Of a stretch of DNA of 64,000 bases, positions 16,736-40,038 are shown piece after piece (the stretch's first letter is position 1; every line of letters begins with the position of its first letter). The notes beneath the pieces are model-generated. The model saw only the letters and a list, made by a program, of their open reading frames with translations, was not told where the DNA came from and did no database searches. The translations under genes were made by a program, and so were the position numbers. The DNA is from Syntrophorhabdaceae bacterium (GTDB taxonomy: Bacteria; Desulfobacterota; Syntrophorhabdia; Syntrophorhabdales; Syntrophorhabdaceae): contig CAXXUO010000001.1 of NCBI GenBank assembly GCA_963666485.2, positions 480,001-544,000 of the forward strand. The letters are read 5' to 3'.

Positions 16736-19700
16736 TTGATCTCAAAGACCTCCTTCGGGAAAACGAGGATATTCCTCAGGATCTCGAGCGATTTCGCGCC
16801 GACCGTCCCGACATAGTTCGTTTTGATGTCGGGATCATCGAACGGGCCCGAAACGGTGTACGTGACGTAGAGAAAACCTTTATTCTTGTTCTTCACTATG
16901 CTCCGGACGATGGGGATGTTGTCGATCGTCCTGTCGAGTGCCACAAGCGGCGACACCTCGAGGGTGCCATTCAGCGTCTCCTTGTTGAGGTCGATGTCCC
17001 CGGTCCCGGTAATGACCATCGACTGGCTGTCGAGGAGGAAATTCTTCGTTCGAAAAACACCATGATCGATAACGAATGTGGCACCCATCTTCTTATATAT
17101 TAAACCATCTTTGCCGAAATCGATCTTTCCGCGTACGAGGTCATACACATTCAGGGCCGCAAATACCTTCGACAACATGTTCCAGCGCTTTATGACGCCG
17201 TCCCTGCTGTACACAGAGGTGTCCCCGCTGAGATTGGCCTTGAGCTCTTTCGAGGTCGCGCCCTCTGACTTCAAGGTGCCGGTAACATAACCGTCGCCGC
17301 TTATCTCCTGGGATGTGCTTCCCATGGCGGCAGATAATATGCCCGGTTTGACATGCGTCATCCGGCCATTCATATAAAACGAGGGTACGGGGCCCGAGAG
17401 GTCCACCATTCCCTTGAGATCGGCATCTCCCCCGAATACGCGGAGTTTCAGGTCGGCTATGTTGACCTTTCTGTCTGTCATGAAGGCGTTGACCTCGAGG
17501 TCCTTTGCCGCGACCTTGCCGAATGCCGCACCGTTTGCCCTTAAGGATATCTTACCGCTCGATACCGCGAGCGCGCTGTCTTTCCGGATGCTCCGCAGCG
17601 TAAGATCGCCGCCCGTCTTGAAATCCTTTGAATCCAGGCGGTCCATGCTGATGATCATGTCGAATTTCGGGGCCTCGAAGCCTTTTACCTTGAGAGACGC
17701 CTTTTTAAGGACGCTCGACCCGGTCGTCAACCCGTTTAAGACAATGTCACATTCATATCCCCTGAAATCAGCGTTGAGATCTATGTCCTTCATCACTGAC
17801 GGCATCCCGGGGAGCTTGACGAAGCCTTTCTTCATCTGTACGTTCCCGACGACCCAGGGGAGTTTTTCCACGGGAAACACAAGGTCCTTGACGGTGAGGT
17901 CGATATTTACCTCACCTCCCTTGAGATCACCCGCCAGGTTGAACAGCGACATGGCCCTGCCCGAATCTTTCGTGCGCACGGCTATCTTCGTGTCGATCTT
18001 CCGCGCCTGCGATATCATGACCGATGCCTGGACACTGATCACGTCGAGGGACCCGGAAAGGTCGTCAATCGTAATCTCCCCGGTCTTCTTCCGGGTAAGC
18101 TTGAACTGGGCCCTGCAGGGAACACCCTTCGCTTTTTTGAAATAACCGGGGACTGTATATGTGACATCATCCATCATGAGATGGGCATTCGTCACAACCT
18201 GGCTGTCGGCGACCGAGATATTTCCGTCAAACTGGACCTTTCCGGATATCGCTGCGGGGCTGCCTGTAATCGGTTTTACAAGCCCGGCGTCGGCGTATCC
18301 CCTGAACGACGACACAAGTCCTTTCGGCCCCCACCTGCCGTTCACAGTAACGGCTGTATCTTTTCCCAACAGTGTTATTGCATTGAATATCAATTCCTGG
18401 CCGGACAGCTGGAACGGGCCATGGATGGTAAACGGTTGTCCCTTCCATTCGACAACCGCATTATTTACCCTGCCCGAACCACCAAGGGCAAGGGCTTTTT
18501 CCTTCGCGCTGTCGAGTTCGATGACCCCGTCCGCGGTCCCTTTCTGGATAGTTACCTCTTTCAGTTCGACAAAATAGGGGATATGCGTAAGGTCCGCCGT
18601 GTATTTGCCGGTCAGCCGCACCCGGGGTTTCTTGCCAAAACCGATCGTTCCCTTCAGGTCATGAAAGGAGGTTGCCCTGAAAGATACTCTGCCCTCCGAA
18701 AAAGTCCCCCTGTCATCTTCTATATCGAGGTTCCCCGAGATATCGGTGAGCTCGTTTCCGTTATACGTGCCGGTGGTCTGCTTCAGTTCCAAGTTCGCGG
18801 TGAAAGGCCGGTCTTTTTCGTACGTCAATTTTTTCATCTTGAGATAACCGTCCTTGATGTACGCCCAGATATCATACCCGACCTCGTCCATCTTCACATA
18901 TTCTCTGACGACGCTTAACGGGACAGGTCCTGACGTGATATCGAGCCGCGCGAACGCGAAGTTCTTCATAGAGGTGTCAACGGTGAACGGGGCATTGGCA
19001 TACCCGGTATCGTATACCTTTATCGTGATATCCGACCCCCTGGCCGTGATGGTCGACTTTGCTTTTACCCTGTCGACGACGAGCGGCTTCCTGAGCCAGG
19101 TGTCGCGCAGGATGAGCTTCGGCGATTCGCATGTCCCCGCGAGGGTCAGGGCACCATCGTACAATGTGAACTCGCCTTTGCCGTTGACAACGCCGGCGAG
19201 GATAGGGTCGATCTTCTCAAGGCCGAAAGAATCTACTTCGATCGAGCCCTTGATCCTGTGCTTCGCCTTCTCTATGGTACTGCTCCCCACTATCCGCACC
19301 TTCCCGGCATGATCGGGATCGGAGATCGATGCGATAAATTTCATCGGTTTTTTTGTATTGATGTTCTCGGCGACAATGGATGCGACAACGAACTTTCTTC
19401 CGTTCGCATCTACAGTACCGTTACTTATATTGAGAAGACCGATCCTGGTATTGAAATCCTTGTTTTTCATCTTGAGCTTGTCGCTGATCACCAGGTTGAA
19501 ATCCTTCATGGATATGGTATCAAAAAAGACCCCGCCCGAAAGATAGATCCGCGTCGACACCTGGCCGATCTTTCCCGAAACCGGCCCTTTGAAAGAAAGG
19601 TTGTTGAGCTCGACCGACAGTGTGCCGTCTTCAAAGAGAAAGTGGGCCTTCTCGATCTTGACCGGTATCCCCGACCGGCTTAAAAAACCGGATATGATCG

Positions 19701-19782
19701 CCGGCAGGTTCCGCGAGACGACGAAGGTCCCCGACGCGATAAGAGCGAGGCATATGAGGACTATGACAATGGCTTTTTTCAT
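16732..19782 (-). CDS. AsmA-like / YhdP-type envelope beta-taco protein
   Basis: N-terminal anchor, about 1000 aa beta-rich, C-terminal IPIVRSI...Y.VSGPFDDP typical of AsmA_2. Confidence 0.8.
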   Translation of the reverse strand: MKKAIVIVLICLALIASGTFVVSRNLPAIISGFLSRSGIPVKIEKAHFLFEDGTLSVELNNLSFKGPVSGKIGQVSTRIYLSGGVFFDTISMKDFNLVISDKLKMKNKDFNTRIGLLNISNGTVDANGRKFVVASIVAENINTKKPMKFIASISDPDHAGKVRIVGSSTIEKAKHRIKGSIEVDSFGLEKIDPILAGVVNGKGEFTLYDGALTLAGTCESPKLILRDTWLRKPLVVDRVKAKSTITARGSDITIKVYDTGYANAPFTVDTSMKNFAFARLDITSGPVPLSVVREYVKMDEVGYDIWAYIKDGYLKMKKLTYEKDRPFTANLELKQTTGTYNGNELTDISGNLDIEDDRGTFSEGRVSFRATSFHDLKGTIGFGKKPRVRLTGKYTADLTHIPYFVELKEVTIQKGTADGVIELDSAKEKALALGGSGRVNNAVVEWKGQPFTIHGPFQLSGQELIFNAITLLGKDTAVTVNGRWGPKGLVSSFRGYADAGLVKPITGSPAAISGKVQFDGNISVADSQVVTNAHLMMDDVTYTVPGYFKKAKGVPCRAQFKLTRKKTGEITIDDLSGSLDVISVQASVMISQARKIDTKIAVRTKDSGRAMSLFNLAGDLKGGEVNIDLTVKDLVFPVEKLPWVVGNVQMKKGFVKLPGMPSVMKDIDLNADFRGYECDIVLNGLTTGSSVLKKASLKVKGFEAPKFDMIISMDRLDSKDFKTGGDLTLRSIRKDSALAVSSGKISLRANGAAFGKVAAKDLEVNAFMTDRKVNIADLKLRVFGGDADLKGMVDLSGPVPSFYMNGRMTHVKPGILSAAMGSTSQEISGDGYVTGTLKSEGATSKELKANLSGDTSVYSRDGVIKRWNMLSKVFAALNVYDLVRGKIDFGKDGLIYKKMGATFVIDHGVFRTKNFLLDSQSMVITGTGDIDLNKETLNGTLEVSPLVALDRTIDNIPIVRSIVKNKNKGFLYVTYTVSGPFDDPDIKTNYVGTVGAKSLEILRNILVFPKEVFEIK

Positions 19783-20474
19783 AGGGGCGTCCTCGCGAGG
19801 GCGAAGAGGACGACGTCCGAGGACCCGGCCCTCACGAGGGTCCGGGCCGCCTCGGCCGCGGTATACCCCGTCGTGAAAAGATCATCGACAAGCAGGATCC
19901 GCCTGCCGCTTAACTGGTCGGGTCTGTTCACCCGGAACGCTCCGCGTACATTCTTCTTCCGCTCATTCCTTGAAAGGCTGAACTGGTCACGCACGCCTTC
20001 GTTCTTGGCAAGCAGGGCATACTCAACGGAAAGCCCTGTGAGGGCCCCGATCTCTTCAGCGATTATGTACGACTGGTTGAAACCCCTTTCCCGGAGCCTT
20101 TTCGCCGACACCGGCACGGGCACGACGAAATCGACCTCCCTGTCGATACCGTGAAGCTTATGCGATACAAGCCGCACGAGCTCGCGGCCTATCTTTTTGA
20201 ACCCCTGAAATTTGAACGCATGGATGGCTTCCCGTACCGCCCCGTCGTACTCGAACCCAAACGAACCCCGGCTGAACCACATCTTTGTCCTGCTGCACGA
20301 ACCGCACACCACGGAACGCCCGAGCCAGCGCCCGCACACCGGGCACACTTCGTCATCCCGGACAATGCGGAACCCGGCAGTGCACTTCTCGCAGAGAACA
20401 TCGCCCTCTGCGCCGCAGACTCCACATGATTGGGGGTAAAAGAGACGTAACGCTGAGTTGAGAAAACTAAGCAC
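19779..20474 (-). CDS. comF: ComF family protein (zinc finger + phosphoribosyltransferase)
   Basis: Four CxxC pairs, RGFNQS, LLVDDLFTTG. GTG start inferred. Confidence 0.9.
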   Translation of the reverse strand: MLSFLNSALRLFYPQSCGVCGAEGDVLCEKCTAGFRIVRDDEVCPVCGRWLGRSVVCGSCSRTKMWFSRGSFGFEYDGAVREAIHAFKFQGFKKIGRELVRLVSHKLHGIDREVDFVVPVPVSAKRLRERGFNQSYIIAEEIGALTGLSVEYALLAKNEGVRDQFSLSRNERKKNVRGAFRVNRPDQLSGRRILLVDDLFTTGYTAAEAARTLVRAGSSDVVLFALARTPL

Positions 20475-21663
20475 CGTACTTGTCGAGCCGCCCCCCGTGC
20501 GCAAGGGCAAGGGACATGAGGTCTTTGCTGTATAGTGTTCCTACACTCCCGGCAAGGCAGTTTTTTTCGTGAAAGACCATGCCGTCCGTTTCCCCGGTCT
20601 TTGTCACGATGAGGGCCGGCACCGGATGCCAGCTATGGCCTTTCATCGGGCACGGCGTCGAATGGTCCCCTGTAATGACGAGGGTGTGCGGGTCGAGCCC
20701 GGCGATCTCCGGGAGGAACGTGTCAACGTTCTCGATGGCCTGCACCTTTTCCGCAAAATTACCGTCCTCTCCTGCAAGGTCCGTTTCCTTGACATGGAAG
20801 AAGAAAAATTGGTAATCGCTGTAATTCTTTTTCAGGATCGCGACAGCCTCGTCGTAGTTTGCCGGTTCGTCCCTGACATCCATCCCGAGGACCTTCGCTA
20901 TACCGCGGTACATCGGGTATGTGGCGATCGCCAGCGCCTTCATGCGATATTTTGCGGTAAACGGCGTGATGTCGGGCTTTAAGGAAAAACCGCGCAGAAG
21001 CGCCCCGTTTGCGACAGGCTCCACCTTCAGGATGTCCATAACCCGTTCGATAAAACCGTTGACGACGCGCGCGGAGAACTCGGCGTCCGGGGATTTCGCC
21101 GATGTGTAGACGAACGGTTTGTTGTCCTTGTGGGGATCGGCATCCGAAAGTTTATCAGTAAGGTTCTTTCCCCTGAATATGACGGCAAACCGGTGGGATT
21201 TGCCGGGCTTTATAATAACCTCGCACCCTTCGACCTTTTCCACCTGCGAACTGATGAGCTTGCAAAGGCGCTCGGTTTCCGATGTCGGTATCCGGCCTGC
21301 CCTGCGATCGGTGACAAGGCCGTTCTTGACGGTGCAGAAATTCGCGCGGGCGGCGAGGTCGCCGTCCTTGAGGTCCATGTTGAGCCCGAGGACCTCGAGC
21401 ACCCCGCGCCCTATTTCATGGACTTGCGGGTCGTACCCGAAAAGGCTCAGGTGGCCCGGGCCGCTCCCCGGGGTGATGCCGATATCGACGGGAGTGATGC
21501 GGCCGAGGACGCCCCTCTTTGTCGCGAGGTCGTCCATGTTGGGTTTTTTCGCGGCCTCGAGCGGGGTCTTCAGGCCAAACGCCGGATTGGGAATGTCCCC
21601 GAGGCCGTCCAGTATGAGGAAGATAACCTTGTTGTCGTTTGACAGCAGCAGTTCATCCATCAT
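20467..21663 (-). CDS. apgM: 2,3-bisphosphoglycerate-independent phosphoglycerate mutase, ApgM type
   Basis: LDGLGD, TPLEAA, TPGSGPGHLSLFGYDP, TGDHSTP, HSWHPVP. Confidence 0.92.
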   Translation of the reverse strand: MMDELLLSNDNKVIFLILDGLGDIPNPAFGLKTPLEAAKKPNMDDLATKRGVLGRITPVDIGITPGSGPGHLSLFGYDPQVHEIGRGVLEVLGLNMDLKDGDLAARANFCTVKNGLVTDRRAGRIPTSETERLCKLISSQVEKVEGCEVIIKPGKSHRFAVIFRGKNLTDKLSDADPHKDNKPFVYTSAKSPDAEFSARVVNGFIERVMDILKVEPVANGALLRGFSLKPDITPFTAKYRMKALAIATYPMYRGIAKVLGMDVRDEPANYDEAVAILKKNYSDYQFFFFHVKETDLAGEDGNFAEKVQAIENVDTFLPEIAGLDPHTLVITGDHSTPCPMKGHSWHPVPALIVTKTGETDGMVFHEKNCLAGSVGTLYSKDLMSLALAHGGRLDKYGA

Positions 21664-23034: not shown

Positions 23035-23388
23035 TTATAATCCTTTCTCCTCCATTTGTCGCTTACACGTTATACAATAACGTGCTACGGGATTTGCTTC
23101 AAGTCTTTTCTCGCTGATCTTCTCCTCGCATTCCTCACAGATGCCGTAGGAGCCCTTGTTCAGCTTGTCGAGCGAATTGTCGATATCCTTGAGGATGGTG
23201 AGGTCGTTGTCGCTTATGCTCATGAGGATGTCGGCATTGTACGTATTGCTGGCGGCATCGGCCATGTCCTGGATGCCGTCCGTGCCAAGGTTATATGAGT
23301 CCTCTTTGAGCTTTTTCGCCTTGTTGAGGATGTTCTCGCGCATCTTCAGCAGCCTCTTCCGGTATAACTCTATGGTCTGTTTATTCAT
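23035..23388 (-). CDS. dksA: DksA/TraR family regulator
   Basis: DMADAA coiled-coil tip and YGICEEC...RL.A.P...CITC. Confidence 0.88.
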   Translation of the reverse strand: MNKQTIELYRKRLLKMRENILNKAKKLKEDSYNLGTDGIQDMADAASNTYNADILMSISDNDLTILKDIDNSLDKLNKGSYGICEECEEKISEKRLEANPVARYCITCKRQMEEKGL

Positions 23389-23755
23389 TGCCCACCTCTA
23401 TATCCTTGTTTTCTTTTTTTATTCTGTATTTTTTGGCCTCCAGCCACAGGCTTTCGAGATCATACAGTTCCCTCAGCGAGGACAGAAAAATATGGACGAT
23501 AACACTCTGAAAATCAAGAATAACCCACCGTCCTTCGTCGTACCCTTCCGATGCGGCGGGCCGCATCTTTTTTTCCTTCATGCCTTCGCGGACCCCGTCC
23601 GCGACCGTTCTTACGTGACGCTCGCTTGTGCCGCTGGCGATGACGAAATAATCGGCAATGTCCGTAAGGCCTTCGAGGTTCATTATAACGATGTCCCCCG
23701 CTTTTTTGTCATCTGCCAGCCTGCCGAGCTCTTCGGCTAATTCTTCAGGTTTCAT
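23381..23755 (-). CDS. rsfS: ribosome silencing factor
   Basis: DKKA.DI, DYFVIASG.S.RHV, WVILD, Y.LE.LW; follows nadD. Confidence 0.93.
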   Translation of the reverse strand: MKPEELAEELGRLADDKKAGDIVIMNLEGLTDIADYFVIASGTSERHVRTVADGVREGMKEKKMRPAASEGYDEGRWVILDFQSVIVHIFLSSLRELYDLESLWLEAKKYRIKKENKDIEVGNE

Positions 23756-23756
23756 G

Positions 23757-24392
23757 TCAGGACCTGTACAACCCCCTTTCACGTATGATCTTCTCGACCG
23801 GAGCGGGGACAAGGTATTTTATCGACCTTGAATCCCTGTGCAGGGCACGCACCTTCGTCGACGAGATGTCTATCTTTGTCACAGCCCGTAGATATATCAT
23901 TTTACCCGATTCATGCCTGTAAACATTTTCCTCCTGCGCGCTAAGTTTAGCACGAATGCGCTCAGGAAGCATCCCGGGGATGTCAGGCTGCCCCGGTACG
24001 GGCCGCGTCATGACGATAAAGTTCGTATGGTAAAAAAGTTCCTCATAATGGTACCAGGTATCGATGAGCATGAAAGCGTCGATACCGATAATAAAATAGA
24101 TATCGTTGAAGCGGCGGCCGAGCTTTTTCAAGGTCTCGATCGTGTAGGAGACACCGCCCCGCCTTATCTCGAGATCGGACACCCGGAAGAGAGGGTTTCC
24201 CCTGACAGCTGCCTTAAGCATTCTCAGCCGGTCTGACGACAGGGCCGCCCCGTCGCTGTCTTTGTGGGGCGGCAGATGGGACGGCACAAAATAGACGGCC
24301 TCGAGGCGGAAATCCTCCCGTATCTCCTCGGCCACGCGCAGGTGACCTACGTGCACAGGATTGAAGGTTCCGCCAAAGACCCCTATTGCCAT
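23757..24392 (-). CDS. nadD: nicotinate-nucleotide adenylyltransferase
   Basis: GGTFNPVHVGH, PPHK, SYTIETL, ISST. Confidence 0.96.
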   Translation of the reverse strand: MAIGVFGGTFNPVHVGHLRVAEEIREDFRLEAVYFVPSHLPPHKDSDGAALSSDRLRMLKAAVRGNPLFRVSDLEIRRGGVSYTIETLKKLGRRFNDIYFIIGIDAFMLIDTWYHYEELFYHTNFIVMTRPVPGQPDIPGMLPERIRAKLSAQEENVYRHESGKMIYLRAVTKIDISSTKVRALHRDSRSIKYLVPAPVEKIIRERGLYRS

Positions 24393-24401
24393 CAGTCTAC
24401 C

Positions 24402-25646
24402 CTATGTCCTTACCTGCCCGCTGCCGAAACCGATGAATTTCGTAACGGTAAGCTCTTCGAGCCCCATGGGCCCGAATGCGTGAAGCCTCGTCGTGCTTAT
24501 CCCCATTTCTGCGCCGAGGCCAAGCTGGAAGCCGTCGTTGAGCCGGGTCGACGCGTTGACCAGAACGAGCGACGAGTTTACCTCGCGCAGAAATTTCCAG
24601 GCCCTGTCATAATTGGTCGTGATGATCGCCTCGGTGTGACTCGAGCCATACTTCCGGATGTGAGCGATGGCATCGGCCATATCTTTCACGACCTTCACCG
24701 ACAGCGTCAGGTCGAGGTATTCCCTGTACCAGTCCGCATTCGTCGCTTTCTTTATCCCCTTCAGTATGGCTGCTGTCTTTTCGCAGCCCCTGACAACCAC
24801 GCCCTGCCGTGTCAGTTCCTTGTGGACCTTCGGCAGGAAGGACCGGGCTATCTTCTCGTTGACGAGGAGCGTTTCCAGTGCGTTGCAGGTGGCGGGCTTC
24901 TGGACCTTCGCGTTTATCGAAACGTCCATGGCCAGTTTCTCGTCGAACTCGTCGTCAATGTATATATGACAAACACCCTTGTAATGCTTGAGGACGGGTA
25001 TCCGGGACCGTTCCACGATGCTGCGTATCAGCGCCTCCCCGCCGCGGGGAATGACGAGGTCTATCTCCTCCTCCCGTTCGAGCAGCGAATAAATGAAATC
25101 ACGGTCCGCCGTCTCGACAAACTGGATGGCATCGGGCGGTATGTCCGATTCTTCCAACGTTTCCACGATCAGCCTGTACAGGGCCTTATTTGAATGATAC
25201 GCCTCGGAGCCCCCTTTCAGGATCACGCAGTTGCCGCTTTTCAGGCACAGGGAAAAGGCCTCCACGGTGACGTTCGGCCGTGATTCGTAAATGATCAGGA
25301 TGACGCCGATGGGTATCCTCATTCGCCCGACGAGAAGGTCGTTCGGCCTCTTCCAGGTCTTGACGATCTCTCCTACGGGGTCGGGAAGGGCCGCAACATC
25401 TTTGAGGCTCCCCTGCATTTCCCGCAGGACCTTGTCATCTATCCTCAACCGGTCGATAAGGCTCCGCGCAAGGCCTTCTTTCTCTGCGGCCTTTATGTCC
25501 TTTGCATTTTCCTCGTACAGGTACCCCTGGTTCTTTCCCAGTTTTTCGGCTAGCCGTACGAGGACCCGGTTCTTTTCATCGGTCGTGGCGTGCGCCAGGA
25601 CGTCGGACGCCCCTTTCGCCCTCTGCGCCAGTTTTTCCGCTTTCAT
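24402..25646 (-). CDS. proA: glutamate-5-semialdehyde dehydrogenase
   Basis: IYESRPNVT, CNALETLL, NASTR..DG..LGLGAEMGIST. Confidence 0.97.
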   Translation of the reverse strand: MKAEKLAQRAKGASDVLAHATTDEKNRVLVRLAEKLGKNQGYLYEENAKDIKAAEKEGLARSLIDRLRIDDKVLREMQGSLKDVAALPDPVGEIVKTWKRPNDLLVGRMRIPIGVILIIYESRPNVTVEAFSLCLKSGNCVILKGGSEAYHSNKALYRLIVETLEESDIPPDAIQFVETADRDFIYSLLEREEEIDLVIPRGGEALIRSIVERSRIPVLKHYKGVCHIYIDDEFDEKLAMDVSINAKVQKPATCNALETLLVNEKIARSFLPKVHKELTRQGVVVRGCEKTAAILKGIKKATNADWYREYLDLTLSVKVVKDMADAIAHIRKYGSSHTEAIITTNYDRAWKFLREVNSSLVLVNASTRLNDGFQLGLGAEMGISTTRLHAFGPMGLEELTVTKFIGFGSGQVRT

Positions 25647-35912: not shown

Positions 35913-37922
35913 TTAACCGCCGACAACGACAGTCCTCAAGACCTCTTCTACGCTGATCGCACCCTCCTTCGCCAGGATAAGGCAGTAATCCTTGAGTGAT
36001 ATCATGCCCGCCGCCAGGGCCGCATCCCGTATGGCCAGCGTGCTTGCGCCTTCGGCTATGAAATGGCGTATGTCCTCGTTGACATTCAAGACCTCGTATA
36101 CGCCGATCCTCCCCTTCGTCCCCTGATTCCTGCAGGCATCACAGCCTTTACCCCTGTAGAACGTCGTACCGGCGGGGAGCCCGAGGTATTCACACGCGGC
36201 CGCGTCTTCGTAGGCCTCCTTGCAGTTCGGGCAGATCTTCCTGACGAGCCTCTGGGCGACAACGCCGATGATAGAGGCGGAGACCAGGAACGGTTCTATC
36301 CCCATCTCCGTGAGACGCATGAACGTGCCGGGGGCGTCATTGGCGTGGAGGGTCGTAAAGACGAGGTGGCCGGTGAGGGCGGCTTCGACGGCGATCTTCG
36401 CCGTCTCCTTGTCCCTTGTTTCCCCGACGAGTATCACGTCCGGGTCCTGCCTGAGGAATGCCCTGAGGACACGGGCAAAGTCGAGGCCGATGTCATGGTT
36501 GACCTGTATTTGGTTGACACCCCTCAGATCATACTCGATCGGGTCCTCTGCCGTGGAGATATTCCTCTTCACATCATTGATCTCTGCAAGCGAGCTGTAC
36601 AGAGTTGTGCTCTTCCCCGAACCGGTGGGCCCCGTCACGTATATTATCCCGTACGGCTTCTTGATCATGTCCCGGACGAGGTTGAGGACCGGGGGATGGG
36701 ATATCAGCTTATCGAGCCCCAGGGTCGTATTTGTCTTGTCCAGGATCCTTGTACATATTTTTTCGCCGAACTTGGCAGGGACTGTGGACACGCGGAAGTC
36801 GATGGACTTGTTCCCCATCTTGATCGTTATACGGCCGTCCTGCGGCAGCCTTCTCTCCGTGATATCGAGCTTGGAGATGATCTTCACCCTGCTGATGAGG
36901 GGAAGCTGTATCTTCTTCGGGAGTACCATGTCCTCCTGCAGGTCCCCATCGACGCGATACCGTACCCTCACCTCTTTTTCCATGGGTTCGATATGGATAT
37001 CGCTCGCCCCCTTCTTCAGGGCCATGGCAATGATGCTGTTCGTCAACTTGATGATCGGGGCGCCTTCGGCCTCTTTTTCTATGTCGGGGATGCCGAGGTC
37101 CTCGTCGCCCCCTTCGTCCAGGGCAAACTCCTTGAGGATATCCGACTGGATATGGTCCATCGACTCGACAAAGCTTTCGATATCGAGGGAGTCGTCCTTG
37201 GTCAGGGTCTTGTATTCCGAATCCATGAATTTAAAAAAATCTTCCTCGTTGACAATGACGAGGTCAAAAAATACCTTCGGGTATTTCTGCTGTACCGCTT
37301 TTTTTATCTCGTCGATCGCCGTGACATTGCGCGCATCGACAACGGCCAGCGTGATCTTGCCATTCACATAGGACGTGGGCAGTATCTTATGCTTGCGCAC
37401 CAGATGCTCCGGGACGCAGGCCATAATGGAATCGTCGTGCTTGAGCGTATGAAGGGAGACGGTGCCGGGGGATTCCCTGTTCTTCATTTCCTCGATGCGG
37501 TCGGCAACGATCCTGCTCAGCTCTATCGACAAAGACTGGTGTTCATGAAGCAGCACGTCGAAATCGTTCTTCATGAGGACCAACACCTTCGTATTGCCGG
37601 ATGCCATAACGGTCGCGGAACGGGGGTTTCCCGTGAGCAGCGCCATTTCCCCGAAGGCAGCCCCGTCGCCCAGTGTCGTAATGGCGACATCGAAATCATT
37701 GTTCTTGGGGTCCCTTTTCCGTATCTCAACTTTTCCCTCGATGATGATAAACATCGCATCGCCGGGCGAGCCTTCGCGGACTATCGCGTGGTTCGGCGGA
37801 TATGACCTCTCGATCATCCTTGCAGAAAGCCTCAGCAGTTCTTCGTCAGGAAGGTCCCGAAAGATGTCCGTATTTTTTAACAGCGCCATCCTGTTGACGT
37901 TCGGCGTATTCATATCAGGCAT
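35913..37922 (-). CDS. PilB/GspE-type assembly ATPase with N-terminal cyclic-nucleotide-binding domain
   Basis: cNMP motif FGEMALLTGNPRSATV; ASDIHIEP, ERRLPQDG, GPTGSGKS, EDPIE, LRQDPD.ILVGETRD, TGHLVFTTLH, CxxC...CxxC. Confidence 0.93.
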   Translation of the reverse strand: MPDMNTPNVNRMALLKNTDIFRDLPDEELLRLSARMIERSYPPNHAIVREGSPGDAMFIIIEGKVEIRKRDPKNNDFDVAITTLGDGAAFGEMALLTGNPRSATVMASGNTKVLVLMKNDFDVLLHEHQSLSIELSRIVADRIEEMKNRESPGTVSLHTLKHDDSIMACVPEHLVRKHKILPTSYVNGKITLAVVDARNVTAIDEIKKAVQQKYPKVFFDLVIVNEEDFFKFMDSEYKTLTKDDSLDIESFVESMDHIQSDILKEFALDEGGDEDLGIPDIEKEAEGAPIIKLTNSIIAMALKKGASDIHIEPMEKEVRVRYRVDGDLQEDMVLPKKIQLPLISRVKIISKLDITERRLPQDGRITIKMGNKSIDFRVSTVPAKFGEKICTRILDKTNTTLGLDKLISHPPVLNLVRDMIKKPYGIIYVTGPTGSGKSTTLYSSLAEINDVKRNISTAEDPIEYDLRGVNQIQVNHDIGLDFARVLRAFLRQDPDVILVGETRDKETAKIAVEAALTGHLVFTTLHANDAPGTFMRLTEMGIEPFLVSASIIGVVAQRLVRKICPNCKEAYEDAAACEYLGLPAGTTFYRGKGCDACRNQGTKGRIGVYEVLNVNEDIRHFIAEGASTLAIRDAALAAGMISLKDYCLILAKEGAISVEEVLRTVVVGG

Positions 37923-37961: not shown

Positions 37962-38663
37962 TTATTTTTTGAAGTCCTGCGCGCATGCTTCCCCCTGGGC
38001 CGGTCCCGATTCCTTCAAGCTCCCCGTCTGCCCCTTTTTCCGGGCTGCCCAGTTAAGGACCCTCTGGCTTGCCTGCGGGCCCCACCCGACGATGATCTCC
38101 CCGTCCATGTCGATCGTCGGTACGGCGGTGCGGCCGGTCAACCTCTTCAGTTCTGCCACCCCTTGAGGGTCATTCCCGACATCGATCTCGGTATATGCGA
38201 TCCCGTTGTGCGAAAGAAACTCTTTCGCCTGTCTGGCATACGGTCATTGCGATGTCATAAAGAGCCGTAACTCCCCCTGTACGACATTCGCAGGTGTTTC
38301 CGGGCGTTGTCTTTTTAATAAGGGGTACCCGTAATACATGATCGCTATGCAGACGAGCACGATGACGATCACGGTCGGCGCAGCCGACCTTTTCTTCTTT
38401 ATGACGGGGCCCGGTGCTGTAATGTCCGGCTGCCGGTAACTGACCGAGCCCTGTTGCGGAGCGTTTCTTTCGGACCAGTATTTTCTGACTATTTCGTAGG
38501 CCGAACTTGCCTCTTTCAGCCTCTGCCAGGCTTCCGGGTCGCCGGATGATTGCTCGGCCTGGTATCTGCGTACCAGTTCACGGTACTTTGCCTCTATTTC
38601 GTTTAACTGCGCCGTTTCGGGAATATCGAGGACCTTGAACATCCTCTGGGTGAGCTCATCCAT
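37962..38663 (-). CDS. candidate selenoprotein: J-like domain + TM + glutaredoxin/NrdH-like domain (Sec UGA at 38246-38244), 233 aa
   Basis: ORFs 38244-38663 and 37962-38159 share a frame and are joined by one TGA plus 28 sense codons: LFMTSQ-U-PYARQAKEFLSHNGIAYTEIDVGNDPQGVAELKRLTGRTAVPTIDMDGEIIVGW. Confidence 0.85.
38210..38228 (-). promoter_or_regulatory. putative bacterial SECIS hairpin
   Basis: GCGAAAGA-GUU-UCUUUCGC, a perfect 8-bp stem starting 15 nt after the UGA, with G in the apical loop. Confidence 0.65.
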
Positions 38664-38882
38664 TTCATCCCCCTTATAGCGGTGGTATGTGCCGTATTTG
38701 GAAACCCAAGAATCATATATTAATAATTGTCGATTTTTATTGCAAAAACTTTGTGATATGGCGAGAATGACAAAACCGGGATAAATAAACCTAACAGAAT
38801 ATCTTCATCGGGAGTACAAGCCTGCTTCGGGCAGACTGGGCTTTTTTAAATCGATTAATTCCTCAGGGGGAGGTATATTCTC

Positions 38883-39115: not shown

Positions 39116-39469
39116 TTAACCACCGCCATTCTCTTCAAAAAATAGAGGACAAAGCTCGGATGAGCCCGGTACATAATCCCGGCAGACTTTCGGCCGCGTC
39201 TCATATATCTCGCACGAGCACAACCCGTCATCCGAACGAAGATAAAAACAATGATTTATCTTCGACCCCTTCTGCGAGATTATACGGTCACCCGCCCAGA
39301 AGACACCTGTGCCGTCAAGCCGGGCGAGGATGTCCGCCCGTCCTTCCTTCTCCCACCTCTCCCTGTCCCCGGCGTCCGCGTATGCGATCATATCAACACT
39401 GCAGCAGAGGCCGCAGCGGCGGCAGGCCTTCTCATGAACATCGTCCATATCCTGCAGAAAGTGTACCAT
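39116..39469 (-). CDS. YkgJ family cysteine-cluster protein
   Basis: CRRCGLCC...CFYL...CEIYETRPKVCRDY. Confidence 0.88.
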   Translation of the reverse strand: MVHFLQDMDDVHEKACRRCGLCCSVDMIAYADAGDRERWEKEGRADILARLDGTGVFWAGDRIISQKGSKINHCFYLRSDDGLCSCEIYETRPKVCRDYVPGSSELCPLFFEENGGG

Positions 39470-39585: not shown

Positions 39586-40038
39586 ATGAGCGATGACCTG
39601 ATCACAGCGGTGTGCCCCAGGTGCGGGGCGAAGAACCGCATTCCCGCAAGCCGATGGAAGGACCGGATGAGATGCGGAAAATGCAAGGAACCCCTTGACC
39701 TGCAGACCCTTTATCCGGGCAGGCCCGTGGACGTGACCGATGCGACCTTCCAGCGGGAGGTGGTGGATTTCAAGGGCCCTGTCCTCGCGGAATTCTACGC
39801 ATCCTGGTGAGGGCACTGCCGGAATCTCGAACCGGTTCTGGATGAACTGGCTCAGGCCTTCAGGGGACAGGCAAGAATAGCGAAAATAAATGTCGATACC
39901 TCTCCGGCATCGGCATCCCGTCATGGCGTGCAGGGAGTTCCCGCCATGTTCTTTTACAGGAACGGAACGATCGCGGACCAGGCGGTCGGGGCCCTGCCAG
40001 GAAATGAGATAGAACGGCGCATCAGGGCCATTTTATAG
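39586..40038 (+). CDS. trxC: candidate selenoprotein: zinc-finger thioredoxin (TrxC/Trx2-like) with WUGHC active site (Sec UGA at 39808-39810), 150 aa
   Basis: CPRC/CGKC zinc finger. Reading through the TGA gives FYASW-U-GHCRNLEPVLDELAQAFRGQARIAKINVD...HGVQGVPAMFFYRNG...VGALP to TAG at 40036-40038. Confidence 0.9.

Follow-up and report, generated by a model that had tools for sequence, protein, structure and literature searches.

Does the TGA codon that interrupts the gene for a J-like membrane protein in a Syntrophorhabdaceae bacterium end that gene, or is it read as selenocysteine (Sec, U), and what would the extended protein do? We analyzed a window of 64,000 nucleotides, which is the whole stretch of DNA under study. 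Two listed open reading frames (ORFs), as an earlier note had claimed, are one frame of 233 codons broken by a single TGA at codon 140 (context FMTSQ-U-PYA) and closed by a TAA stop (37964–37962). Pfam analysis of the read-through product placed a DnaJ domain at residues 8–59 and a glutaredoxin (Grx) domain at residues 134–191; the latter spans the TGA, which occupies the catalytic first Cys column of the Grx/NrdH motif. We designate the gene and its product J-Grx (Table 1). Our main reading, to which we assign a probability of about 0.96 from the sequence comparisons below, is that the TGA is decoded as Sec, giving a 233-residue selenoprotein.

Table 1. Features of the J-Grx locus in the window and their positions
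Feature	Position	Strand	Remarks
Full coding sequence, 233 aa including putative Sec140	37962..38663	-	Gene callers end the ORF at 139 aa (38663-38244)
In-frame TGA, putative Sec140	38244..38246	-	TGA in 6/6 loci with DNA
Promoter-like block TTGCAA-17-TAATAT	38717..38745	-	Kept upstream in 4/5 loci; putative function
Shine-Dalgarno-like AAGGGGGA 5' of the ATG	38668..38675	-	
Pseudo-J domain, aa 1-67, three helices, QAE replacing HPD, invariant W46-x-x-L-K-E	38463..38663	-	PF00226 29.6 bits (cut-off 27.8); model pLDDT ~90
Pro-rich disordered linker, aa 68-94, KKKR (89-92) near its end	38382..38462	-	pLDDT <50 for aa 71-94
Lone hydrophobic helix, aa 95-116, predicted signal-anchor, with near-invariant C105	38316..38381	-	
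YruB/NrdH-type glutaredoxin fold, aa 131-207, UPYA, cis-Pro-type AVP(182) and VGW	38043..38273	-	PF00462 56.9 bits
Putative SECIS upper stem-loop, 8 bp, loop GUU, UGA to loop 23 nt	38210..38228	-	Fits the bSECIS model in the available text of PMC13188914
C-terminal helix end and low-confidence tail with C228	37965..38042	-	Tail Cys within open frame in 2/5 loci
Downstream neighbor: cNMP-binding, MshEN, and PilB/GspE ATPase	35913..37919	-	
Upstream neighbor: CxxCxxCC (PF03692) protein	39116..39469	-	Context only

The in-frame TGA, its hairpin, and its conservation

The perfect hairpin reported in the earlier note, GCGAAAGA-GTT-TCTTTCGC (38228–38210, minus strand), begins 15 nt past the TGA and has 8 Watson–Crick pairs with a G first in the loop. 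It lies within all 4 limits set for bacterial SECIS (bSECIS) elements in the available text of a 2026 catalog (PMC13188914): (i) a loop of 3–9 nt with a G in position 1 or 2 (here GUU); (ii) a stem of 4–16 bp (8 bp); (iii) a loop located 16–37 nt from the UGA (23 nt); and (iv) a minimum free energy of ≤ −7.5 kcal/mol (−8.6 kcal/mol for the bare hairpin). An all-Watson–Crick stem of at least 8 bp with a G-first loop at the same distance followed 1 of 6256 sampled genomic TGAs, or 27 of 6256 when G–U pairs were permitted. A loose SECIS model matched 260 TGAs in this genome, and a frame of at least 90 codons stayed open after the TGA in 902 of its 4411 long TGA-ended frames. Because an open frame past the TGA and a loose hairpin are both common in this genome, the Sec case rests on conservation.

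DNA was available for 5 relatives (genomes G019, G020, and G022, metagenome contig L035, and L142). The TGA, the UPYA motif, and the identical 19-nt hairpin were present in the window and in all of these relatives (6/6 loci). The 7 hairpin codons showed no synonymous change in 5 loci, with a joint chance of about 2e-4 estimated from rates outside the hairpin, where 7 of 30 degenerate, amino-acid-invariant codons were also nucleotide-invariant. The dN/dS values over the 63 codons past the TGA ranged from 0.06 to 0.33 (5 loci; L142 left out); on this comparison, the codons downstream of the TGA are under purifying selection. These data, together with the Sec machinery described below, support the SECIS-driven read-through that the earlier note had proposed. 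The sequencing error that it had considered (TGC or TGT) was not seen: 4 assemblies were uniform in every letter of the stretch, all of them from one sample that is perhaps the source of the window.

The hairpin also distinguishes Sec from Cys forms among related Grx-like domains. In a comparison of 46 of 71 such domains (25 distant rows left out), the 7 outer pairs were complete in 19/28 Sec forms versus 1/18 Cys forms, and in 18/23 versus 1/5 when the peptide was held alike; this is a pattern to which no valid p-value attaches and whose significance is overstated, because kin are not independent. Codon choice contributes partly to stem formation. The identical 19-mer is carried by 5 stand-alone Sec glutaredoxins of the phylum, and a degenerate TGA-plus-hairpin pattern gave 0 matches in viral contigs.

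Protein databases contain the family in a form cut at the TGA column. The 11 matches among 224 candidates comprised the window's own ORF, 9 proteins ending exactly at the TGA column, and 1 diverging before the helix, and profile searching across 1.8 billion representatives yielded 3 more proteins (37–47% identity) ending at the same column and 2 fragments; altogether, 12 of 13 near-full-length protein clusters end there. The entries are called as 138–147 residues long, and 2 of them are titled “curved DNA-binding protein CbpA.” As to what homologs carry at the TGA column, which the earlier note had suggested examining, no continuation with Cys was found among the 9 of 10 non-self matches and the 3 distant representatives that end there, no non-Cys residue was seen, and all 6 loci with DNA carry TGA. 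No convincing Grx domain was found in 148 new representatives from the profile search.

The gene has a narrow distribution. The complete J-Grx architecture occurred in 4 of 96 genomes of the class, all within the same genus. Among 401 genomes drawn from the phylum, the J part was matched by its own genome only and the Grx part alone by 53 others; scans of genome contigs with the single protein and with the alignment gave 0/56 and 4/107, respectively. A word-index search with the Grx part alone, which is too insensitive for absence, returned no match from 12 candidates close to it in length, and a single 43-residue fragment from the short proteins. The gene of G022 has an upstream frameshift, which may be an assembly error because neighboring housekeeping genes on the contig also look broken. 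The copy in L142 (L142:1382-2026) is decayed, with several TAG and TAA stops and a frameshift, yet retains the TGA, UPYA, and the hairpin; it sits on a 3-kb contig titled Firmicutes and is possibly mis-binned. Because the J-Grx gene is missing from the corresponding site in genome G012 and decayed in L142, it is dispensable. The promoter-like block upstream of the gene was below the detection of a consensus scan, and scans for promoters and terminators did no better than chance.

The Sec machinery, which the earlier note had proposed to look for, is complete in this genome: selA and tRNA-Sec(TCA) on C1 (the window's own contig), selB on C4, and selD on C2, all above cut-offs. SelA was also found in the 3 other genomes carrying the fusion. 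The selD gene has its own in-frame TGA, and further in-frame TGAs lie at the expected columns of fdhA, 2 of 4 mvhD matches, and one peroxiredoxin. A second selA/selB pair (C3:1-50000; selB 19427–21346, selA 23051–24430) lies in a 50-kb block with a GC content of 0.64–0.70, compared with ~0.55 elsewhere in the genome. Either a foreign piece of contig or a transferred island would probably explain the block, and the foreign-looking pair was not taken as evidence of a special Sec system. A loose scan pointed to 2 more likely selenoproteins, C1:145787 (minus strand; CSMU, then 969 open codons) and C1:443376 (minus strand; GGUAGP), which we take from their motifs to be HdrA-like and HesB-like, respectively. 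In addition, a TrxC-like ORF from position 39586 onward (plus strand, listed as 39586–39810) reads EFYASW and then stops at the thioredoxin active-site column, and its copy in G012 likewise ends in EFFAPW. Judged by this pattern, the ORF is probably another putative selenoprotein cut at UGA, 900 bp from the J-Grx gene.

The glutaredoxin domain and its probable lone selenocysteine

The redoxin domain has a thioredoxin (Trx) fold with a cis-Pro motif and scored 56.9 against the PF00462 gathering threshold of 22.9. Its top NCBIfam match was the YruB family (TIGR02196, 58.2 bits, under the cut-off of 88.55), whose C/U-x-x-C dithiol motif is absent, with UPYA at all loci. The second-best match was Uxx_star (NF041212, 58 bits, or 50.1 bits in the genome search, under the cut-off of 66), and UXX-star families 1–3 scored 29–40 bits against cut-offs of 72–100. 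The redoxin stays under the cut-offs of all named NCBIfam families, and J-Grx is the sole Uxx_star/YruB-like match in the genome. The best loci among the matches (72 examined, one without a match) provided 71 Grx-like domains, whose motifs were UxxC in 45, CxxC in 20, UxxA in 5 (the J-Grx family), and UxxG in 1; outside the J-Grx family, the second Cys was kept in 65 of 66. The stand-alone Uxx-star-like selenoprotein L091 (G014), with UPFG, is another protein whose resolving Cys has been lost.

The description of J-Grx as having a single selenol and no resolving Cys, made in the earlier note, holds for the UPYA motif and not for the whole protein, which has 2 Cys residues outside the motif (C105 in the helix and C228 in the poorly conserved tail). 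We rejected C228 as an essential resolving Cys, since it lies within the open frame in just 2 of 5 loci. In L006 (G020), a TAG stop ends the tail after the Grx domain, and the homologous Cys-bearing tail continues in frame behind the TAG. Inspection by eye against the lipobox consensus led us to reject a lipobox at C105, because position −1 is Val.

Pairwise comparison and phylogeny differ on the origin of the domain. The best pairwise scores were obtained with stand-alone Sec forms (170–175, 39–45% identity) rather than with exported Cys forms (108–124); the Grx tree grouped the UPYA clade with the exported Cys forms (support 87/70, flagged for long branches) and not with the stand-alone Sec forms. 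Because the tree does not group them, an origin from a stand-alone Sec form rests on similarity and the SECIS. It is likely, though not settled, that the UPYA domain derives from a stand-alone YruB-like UxxC selenoglutaredoxin, including its SECIS.

The best PDB sequence match was Clostridium oremlandii Grx1 (PDB 7C10/7C12, E 7e-8), which shares the fold of J-Grx (RMSD 1.7 Å over 73 residues) and has Sec at the same attacking position; Grx1 is a small, soluble UxxC protein, whereas J-Grx is naturally UxxA with a membrane leader. According to the available text of PMC4479559, native Grx1 is U13/C16, and its monothiol form, which makes a mixed heterodimer with the target, is an engineered C16S mutant. 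Grx1 was therefore rejected as a natural monoselenol precedent. YruB/Cp9-type redoxins have been linked to thioredoxin reductase and peroxiredoxin (PMC3720550, available text). J-Grx resembles the YruB/Cp9-like redoxins (TIGR02196), NrdH, BC3987, and the stand-alone Sec forms with UPYC, UPWC, or UPFC, and has the SECIS 19-mer in common with these Sec forms; unlike the YruB/Cp9-like redoxins, it lacks the second Cys, is fused and anchored, and scores below the cut-off. The UXX-star group (NF041212, families 1–3, and the HUGP/GUXX-star fusion), reportedly defined by Haft and Tolstoy in 2025, also consists of glutaredoxin-like selenoproteins truncated at UGA by gene callers, some of them without a resolving Cys. 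In the available text of PMC13188914, UXX-star family 1 is UxxT, and the UXX-star entries include neither a J or membrane fusion nor UxxA.

The pseudo-J leader, the helix, and topology

The predicted model (mean pLDDT 70.7, pTM 0.35) consists of a J fold (residues 3–67; helices 3–11, 20–39, and 43–67), a helix (residues 95–116), and a Grx fold (residues 132–214), with disordered linkers between them, and Foldseek returned Grx/NrdH-type proteins. As the earlier note had observed, YQAE replaces the YHPD of DnaJ. The His column of HPD is occupied by Gln (Q35) in 13/13 aligned rows, and the surface of the J-like domain shows strong conservation, with 13 columns invariant across 14 rows. Since none of the J chimeras tested remained functional once the His of HPD was exchanged for Gln (PMC1906734, available text), the J-like domain, by analogy, should not act as a DnaK co-chaperone or stimulate Hsp70, in agreement with the earlier note.

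Compared with the J-domain co-chaperones (DnaJ classes A–C), J-Grx has the J fold and the PF00226 match but lacks the HPD motif. A recognizable J domain with a non-conservatively replaced HPD is the hallmark of the type IV or pseudo-J proteins (Pam16-like); J-Grx differs from them as a bacterial protein joined to a selenoenzyme. What the type IV class does has been described as unresolved (PMC13254874, available text). A Pam16/Pam18-type pair was rejected because no membrane-anchored HPD J partner was found in the genome: 4 of its 6 J-like matches have HPD, and they are without a strong hydrophobic span. ERdj5/DNAJC10 also combines a J domain and a Trx-fold redox domain in one chain, which is an analogy and not membership, and Foldseek of the whole model against its J-Trx1 fragment (3APQ) gave an E value of 2e-4 with a TM score of only 0.23. 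ERdj5 works with BiP in the ER lumen, where its functional J domain with HPD lies alongside Trx domains with CxxC (according to the available literature text); in J-Grx, HPD is lost, the motif is UxxA, and a hydrophobic helix is predicted to split the domains across the membrane.

The protein has one hydrophobic span and no N-terminal signal. The KKKR that the earlier note had placed before the helix is present, and its periplasmic assignment of the redoxin by the positive-inside rule stands in part: the charge bias is weak (4 K/R before the helix, 3 after), and an N-side excess is found in 10 of 13 homologs. A topology with the N-terminus inside and the C-terminus outside is suggested mainly by the folded N-terminal domain and by a protease with a homologous leader, protease domains of the membrane-anchored HtrA/DegS type being outward-facing.

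HPD-less J-like domains with W-x-x-[LIVT]-K-E also head multi-helix HExxH proteins and helix-plus-trypsin-like proteases in the class. The genome itself encodes a leader-bearing trypsin-like protease (L123:3433-4788, corresponding to C3:350432 onward) with intact catalytic motifs, whose leader aligns with that of J-Grx from the J domain through the helix (HHalign 96%, E 3e-9), and such proteases occur in 16 of the 19 other genomes of the genus. The J loop of the protease leader is almost wholly deleted, and the protease gene has no ATG start in this genome. In L012, L015, L017, and L047, the HPD-less J-like domain is followed by a multi-helix membrane part with HEAGH and no Pfam match for that part; the motif makes membrane metalloproteases a possible assignment. 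Among 35 J domains picked by hand for a tree, the 16 rows without HPD separated from the 19 with HPD at moderate support (89/83). The HPD-less leader is, by these alignments and motifs, a reusable module of the lineage. Complex prediction for the redoxin leader and the protease leader scored 0.00 in 2 runs, with the controls not folded.

Proposed function, alternatives, and significance

According to the main reading, SelB would recognize the hairpin and Sec would be inserted at codon 140 to give the 233-residue protein, whereas failed read-through would leave a 139-residue anchor without a catalytic domain. The gene may have arisen when a UxxC selenoglutaredoxin with its SECIS became fused behind a leader composed of an HPD-less J-like domain, a linker, and a transmembrane helix, the resolving Cys being replaced by Ala. 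With the J-like domain in the cytoplasm and the helix as a signal-anchor, the redoxin would face the periplasm, where its lone selenolate could attack disulfides or oxidized thiols of envelope proteins, resulting in a mixed Se–S bond. Resolution of this bond would need a partner in trans: a second substrate thiol, in an isomerase-like manner, or a reductant supplied via CcdA, but not glutathione. The genome encodes a CcdA-type DsbD_TM protein; the glutathione-synthesis family searched for (GshB, PF02955) was not found in this 99%-complete genome, and a simple motif scan of the genome yielded no signal-bearing canonical thioredoxin. An N-terminally anchored AhpC/TSA-family CxxC protein on C9 is only a candidate relay. 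The protein would serve an anaerobe by repairing or reshuffling the thiols of its envelope proteins, and the pseudo-J domain would be a non-cochaperone leader or adaptor common to an envelope protease. We consider the chances about even that J-Grx is a thiol–disulfide redoxin that faces the periplasm, uses a single selenol to repair envelope proteins, and is recycled in trans.

The lone selenol could instead hold its partner as a stable Se–S adduct, or become oxidized, and the resulting state could be relayed through the helix to the pseudo-J domain, which would bind a regulator or a machine such as the cNMP-PilB ATPase. The invariance of UxxA in 6/6 loci against a second Cys that other sampled domains nearly always keep, the conserved J surface despite the loss of HPD, and the mixed heterodimer of the monothiol Grx1 mutant are consistent with such a covalent trap or one-component redox sensor, as is the ATPase gene, which directly follows J-Grx in 4 of 6 loci. 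This ATPase (possibly, from its domains, a cyclic-nucleotide-gated pilus or secretion motor) is, however, found in 72 of 96 class genomes, mostly without a J-Grx gene. In G012 an ATPase of 83% identity immediately follows the CxxCxxCC gene, J-Grx being absent from the interval, and G022 and L142 have J-Grx without an adjacent ATPase; an obligate link between the two genes was therefore rejected. The ATPase is multi-copy in several genomes of the genus. The disordered linkers flanking the helix also fit a tether better than a signal relay, and the occurrence of the leader on a protease argues for a generic module, so that we regard a trap or sensor as a tentative and rather unlikely reading.

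A redoxin in the cytoplasm, with the helix inverted or not spanning the membrane, would depend on thioredoxin reductase for its recycling, as the stand-alone relatives do. This location would solve the reductant problem, 3 K/R residues also directly follow the helix, and the only Uxx_star/YruB-like match in the genome could replace a cytoplasmic protein; it is nevertheless improbable, given a folded 67-residue domain that lacks a signal peptide and precedes a strongly hydrophobic 22-residue helix, the N-side K/R excess in most homologs, and the homologous leader that carries a Cys-containing trypsin-like domain. A selenol at the cell surface that binds or detoxifies metals or metalloids (Hg, As, Cu, or polysulfide) instead of acting on protein disulfides also appears distinctly improbable to us. 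The Sec of UXX-star proteins may be a metal-binding ligand and an arsenate reductase with UxxS is listed in the available text of PMC13188914, and Uxx_star ranks second among the NCBIfam matches; its score is under the family cut-off, the nearest relatives are YruB-type UxxC redoxins, and no metal-resistance or arsenic genes were found among the neighbors read in the 6 loci. The TGA might, finally, be a true stop or an error that leaves a 139-residue J-like membrane protein and a relic behind it, consistent with the length at which all database entries are called and with the pseudogene L142, which still has the TGA and the hairpin. Purifying selection past the TGA, the synonymous freeze in the hairpin, the position of the TGA at the catalytic column, the complete Sec machinery, and in-frame starts after the TGA that all lie beyond the active site make this reading highly improbable.

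The 2026 catalog lists Grx (UxxC), UXX-star families and fusions, and UxxS, UxxT, UxxG, and UxxV motifs, and DnaJ and UxxA have 0 occurrences in its available text (PMC13188914). DnaJ is likewise absent from the available main texts of BSepDB, the GOS survey, deep-Sep, the Olavius study, and the SAO preprint. The available BSepDB supplement gave no match for DnaJ, Grx, or UXX; “glutaredoxin” is also absent from it, so the family table may be incomplete there. A full-text literature search for the combination of a J domain and a Sec-glutaredoxin, whose scope did not extend to Haft and Tolstoy 2025, found no relevant description. The membrane-anchored UxxA and pseudo-J architecture and its motif, not found in the selenoprotein lists compared as far as their text was available, are new relative to them, and the component parts (selenoglutaredoxin, SECIS, and pseudo-J leader) are of known kinds. 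The unfamiliarity of the architecture asserted in the earlier note is thus borne out for the combination; the surprise was overstated, because the catalytic domain and SECIS match a common stand-alone selenoglutaredoxin, UxxS and UxxT are already cataloged, and the leader is reusable.

The finding adds an architecture and a motif to the known selenoproteins, UxxA in a membrane-anchored and probably exported protein, and corrects database entries truncated at 138–147 residues; its impact is limited by the narrow distribution (4/96 class genomes). J-Grx appears to show a selenoprotein domain that has changed compartment while keeping an intact SECIS within its coding region. More speculatively, and with low odds in our view, HPD-less J-like leaders might form an undescribed bacterial family that docks envelope quality-control enzymes (trypsin-like protease, multi-helix HExxH protein, and single-selenol redoxin) onto one common partner in the cytoplasm, with the UxxA selenol as a natural covalent trap or sensor that couples periplasmic thiol damage to proteolysis or signaling. 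If true, this would be a trans-membrane, Hsp70-independent counterpart of ERdj5. The lineage-wide HPD-less J-like leader on envelope enzymes offers a small bacterial test case for pseudo-J function.
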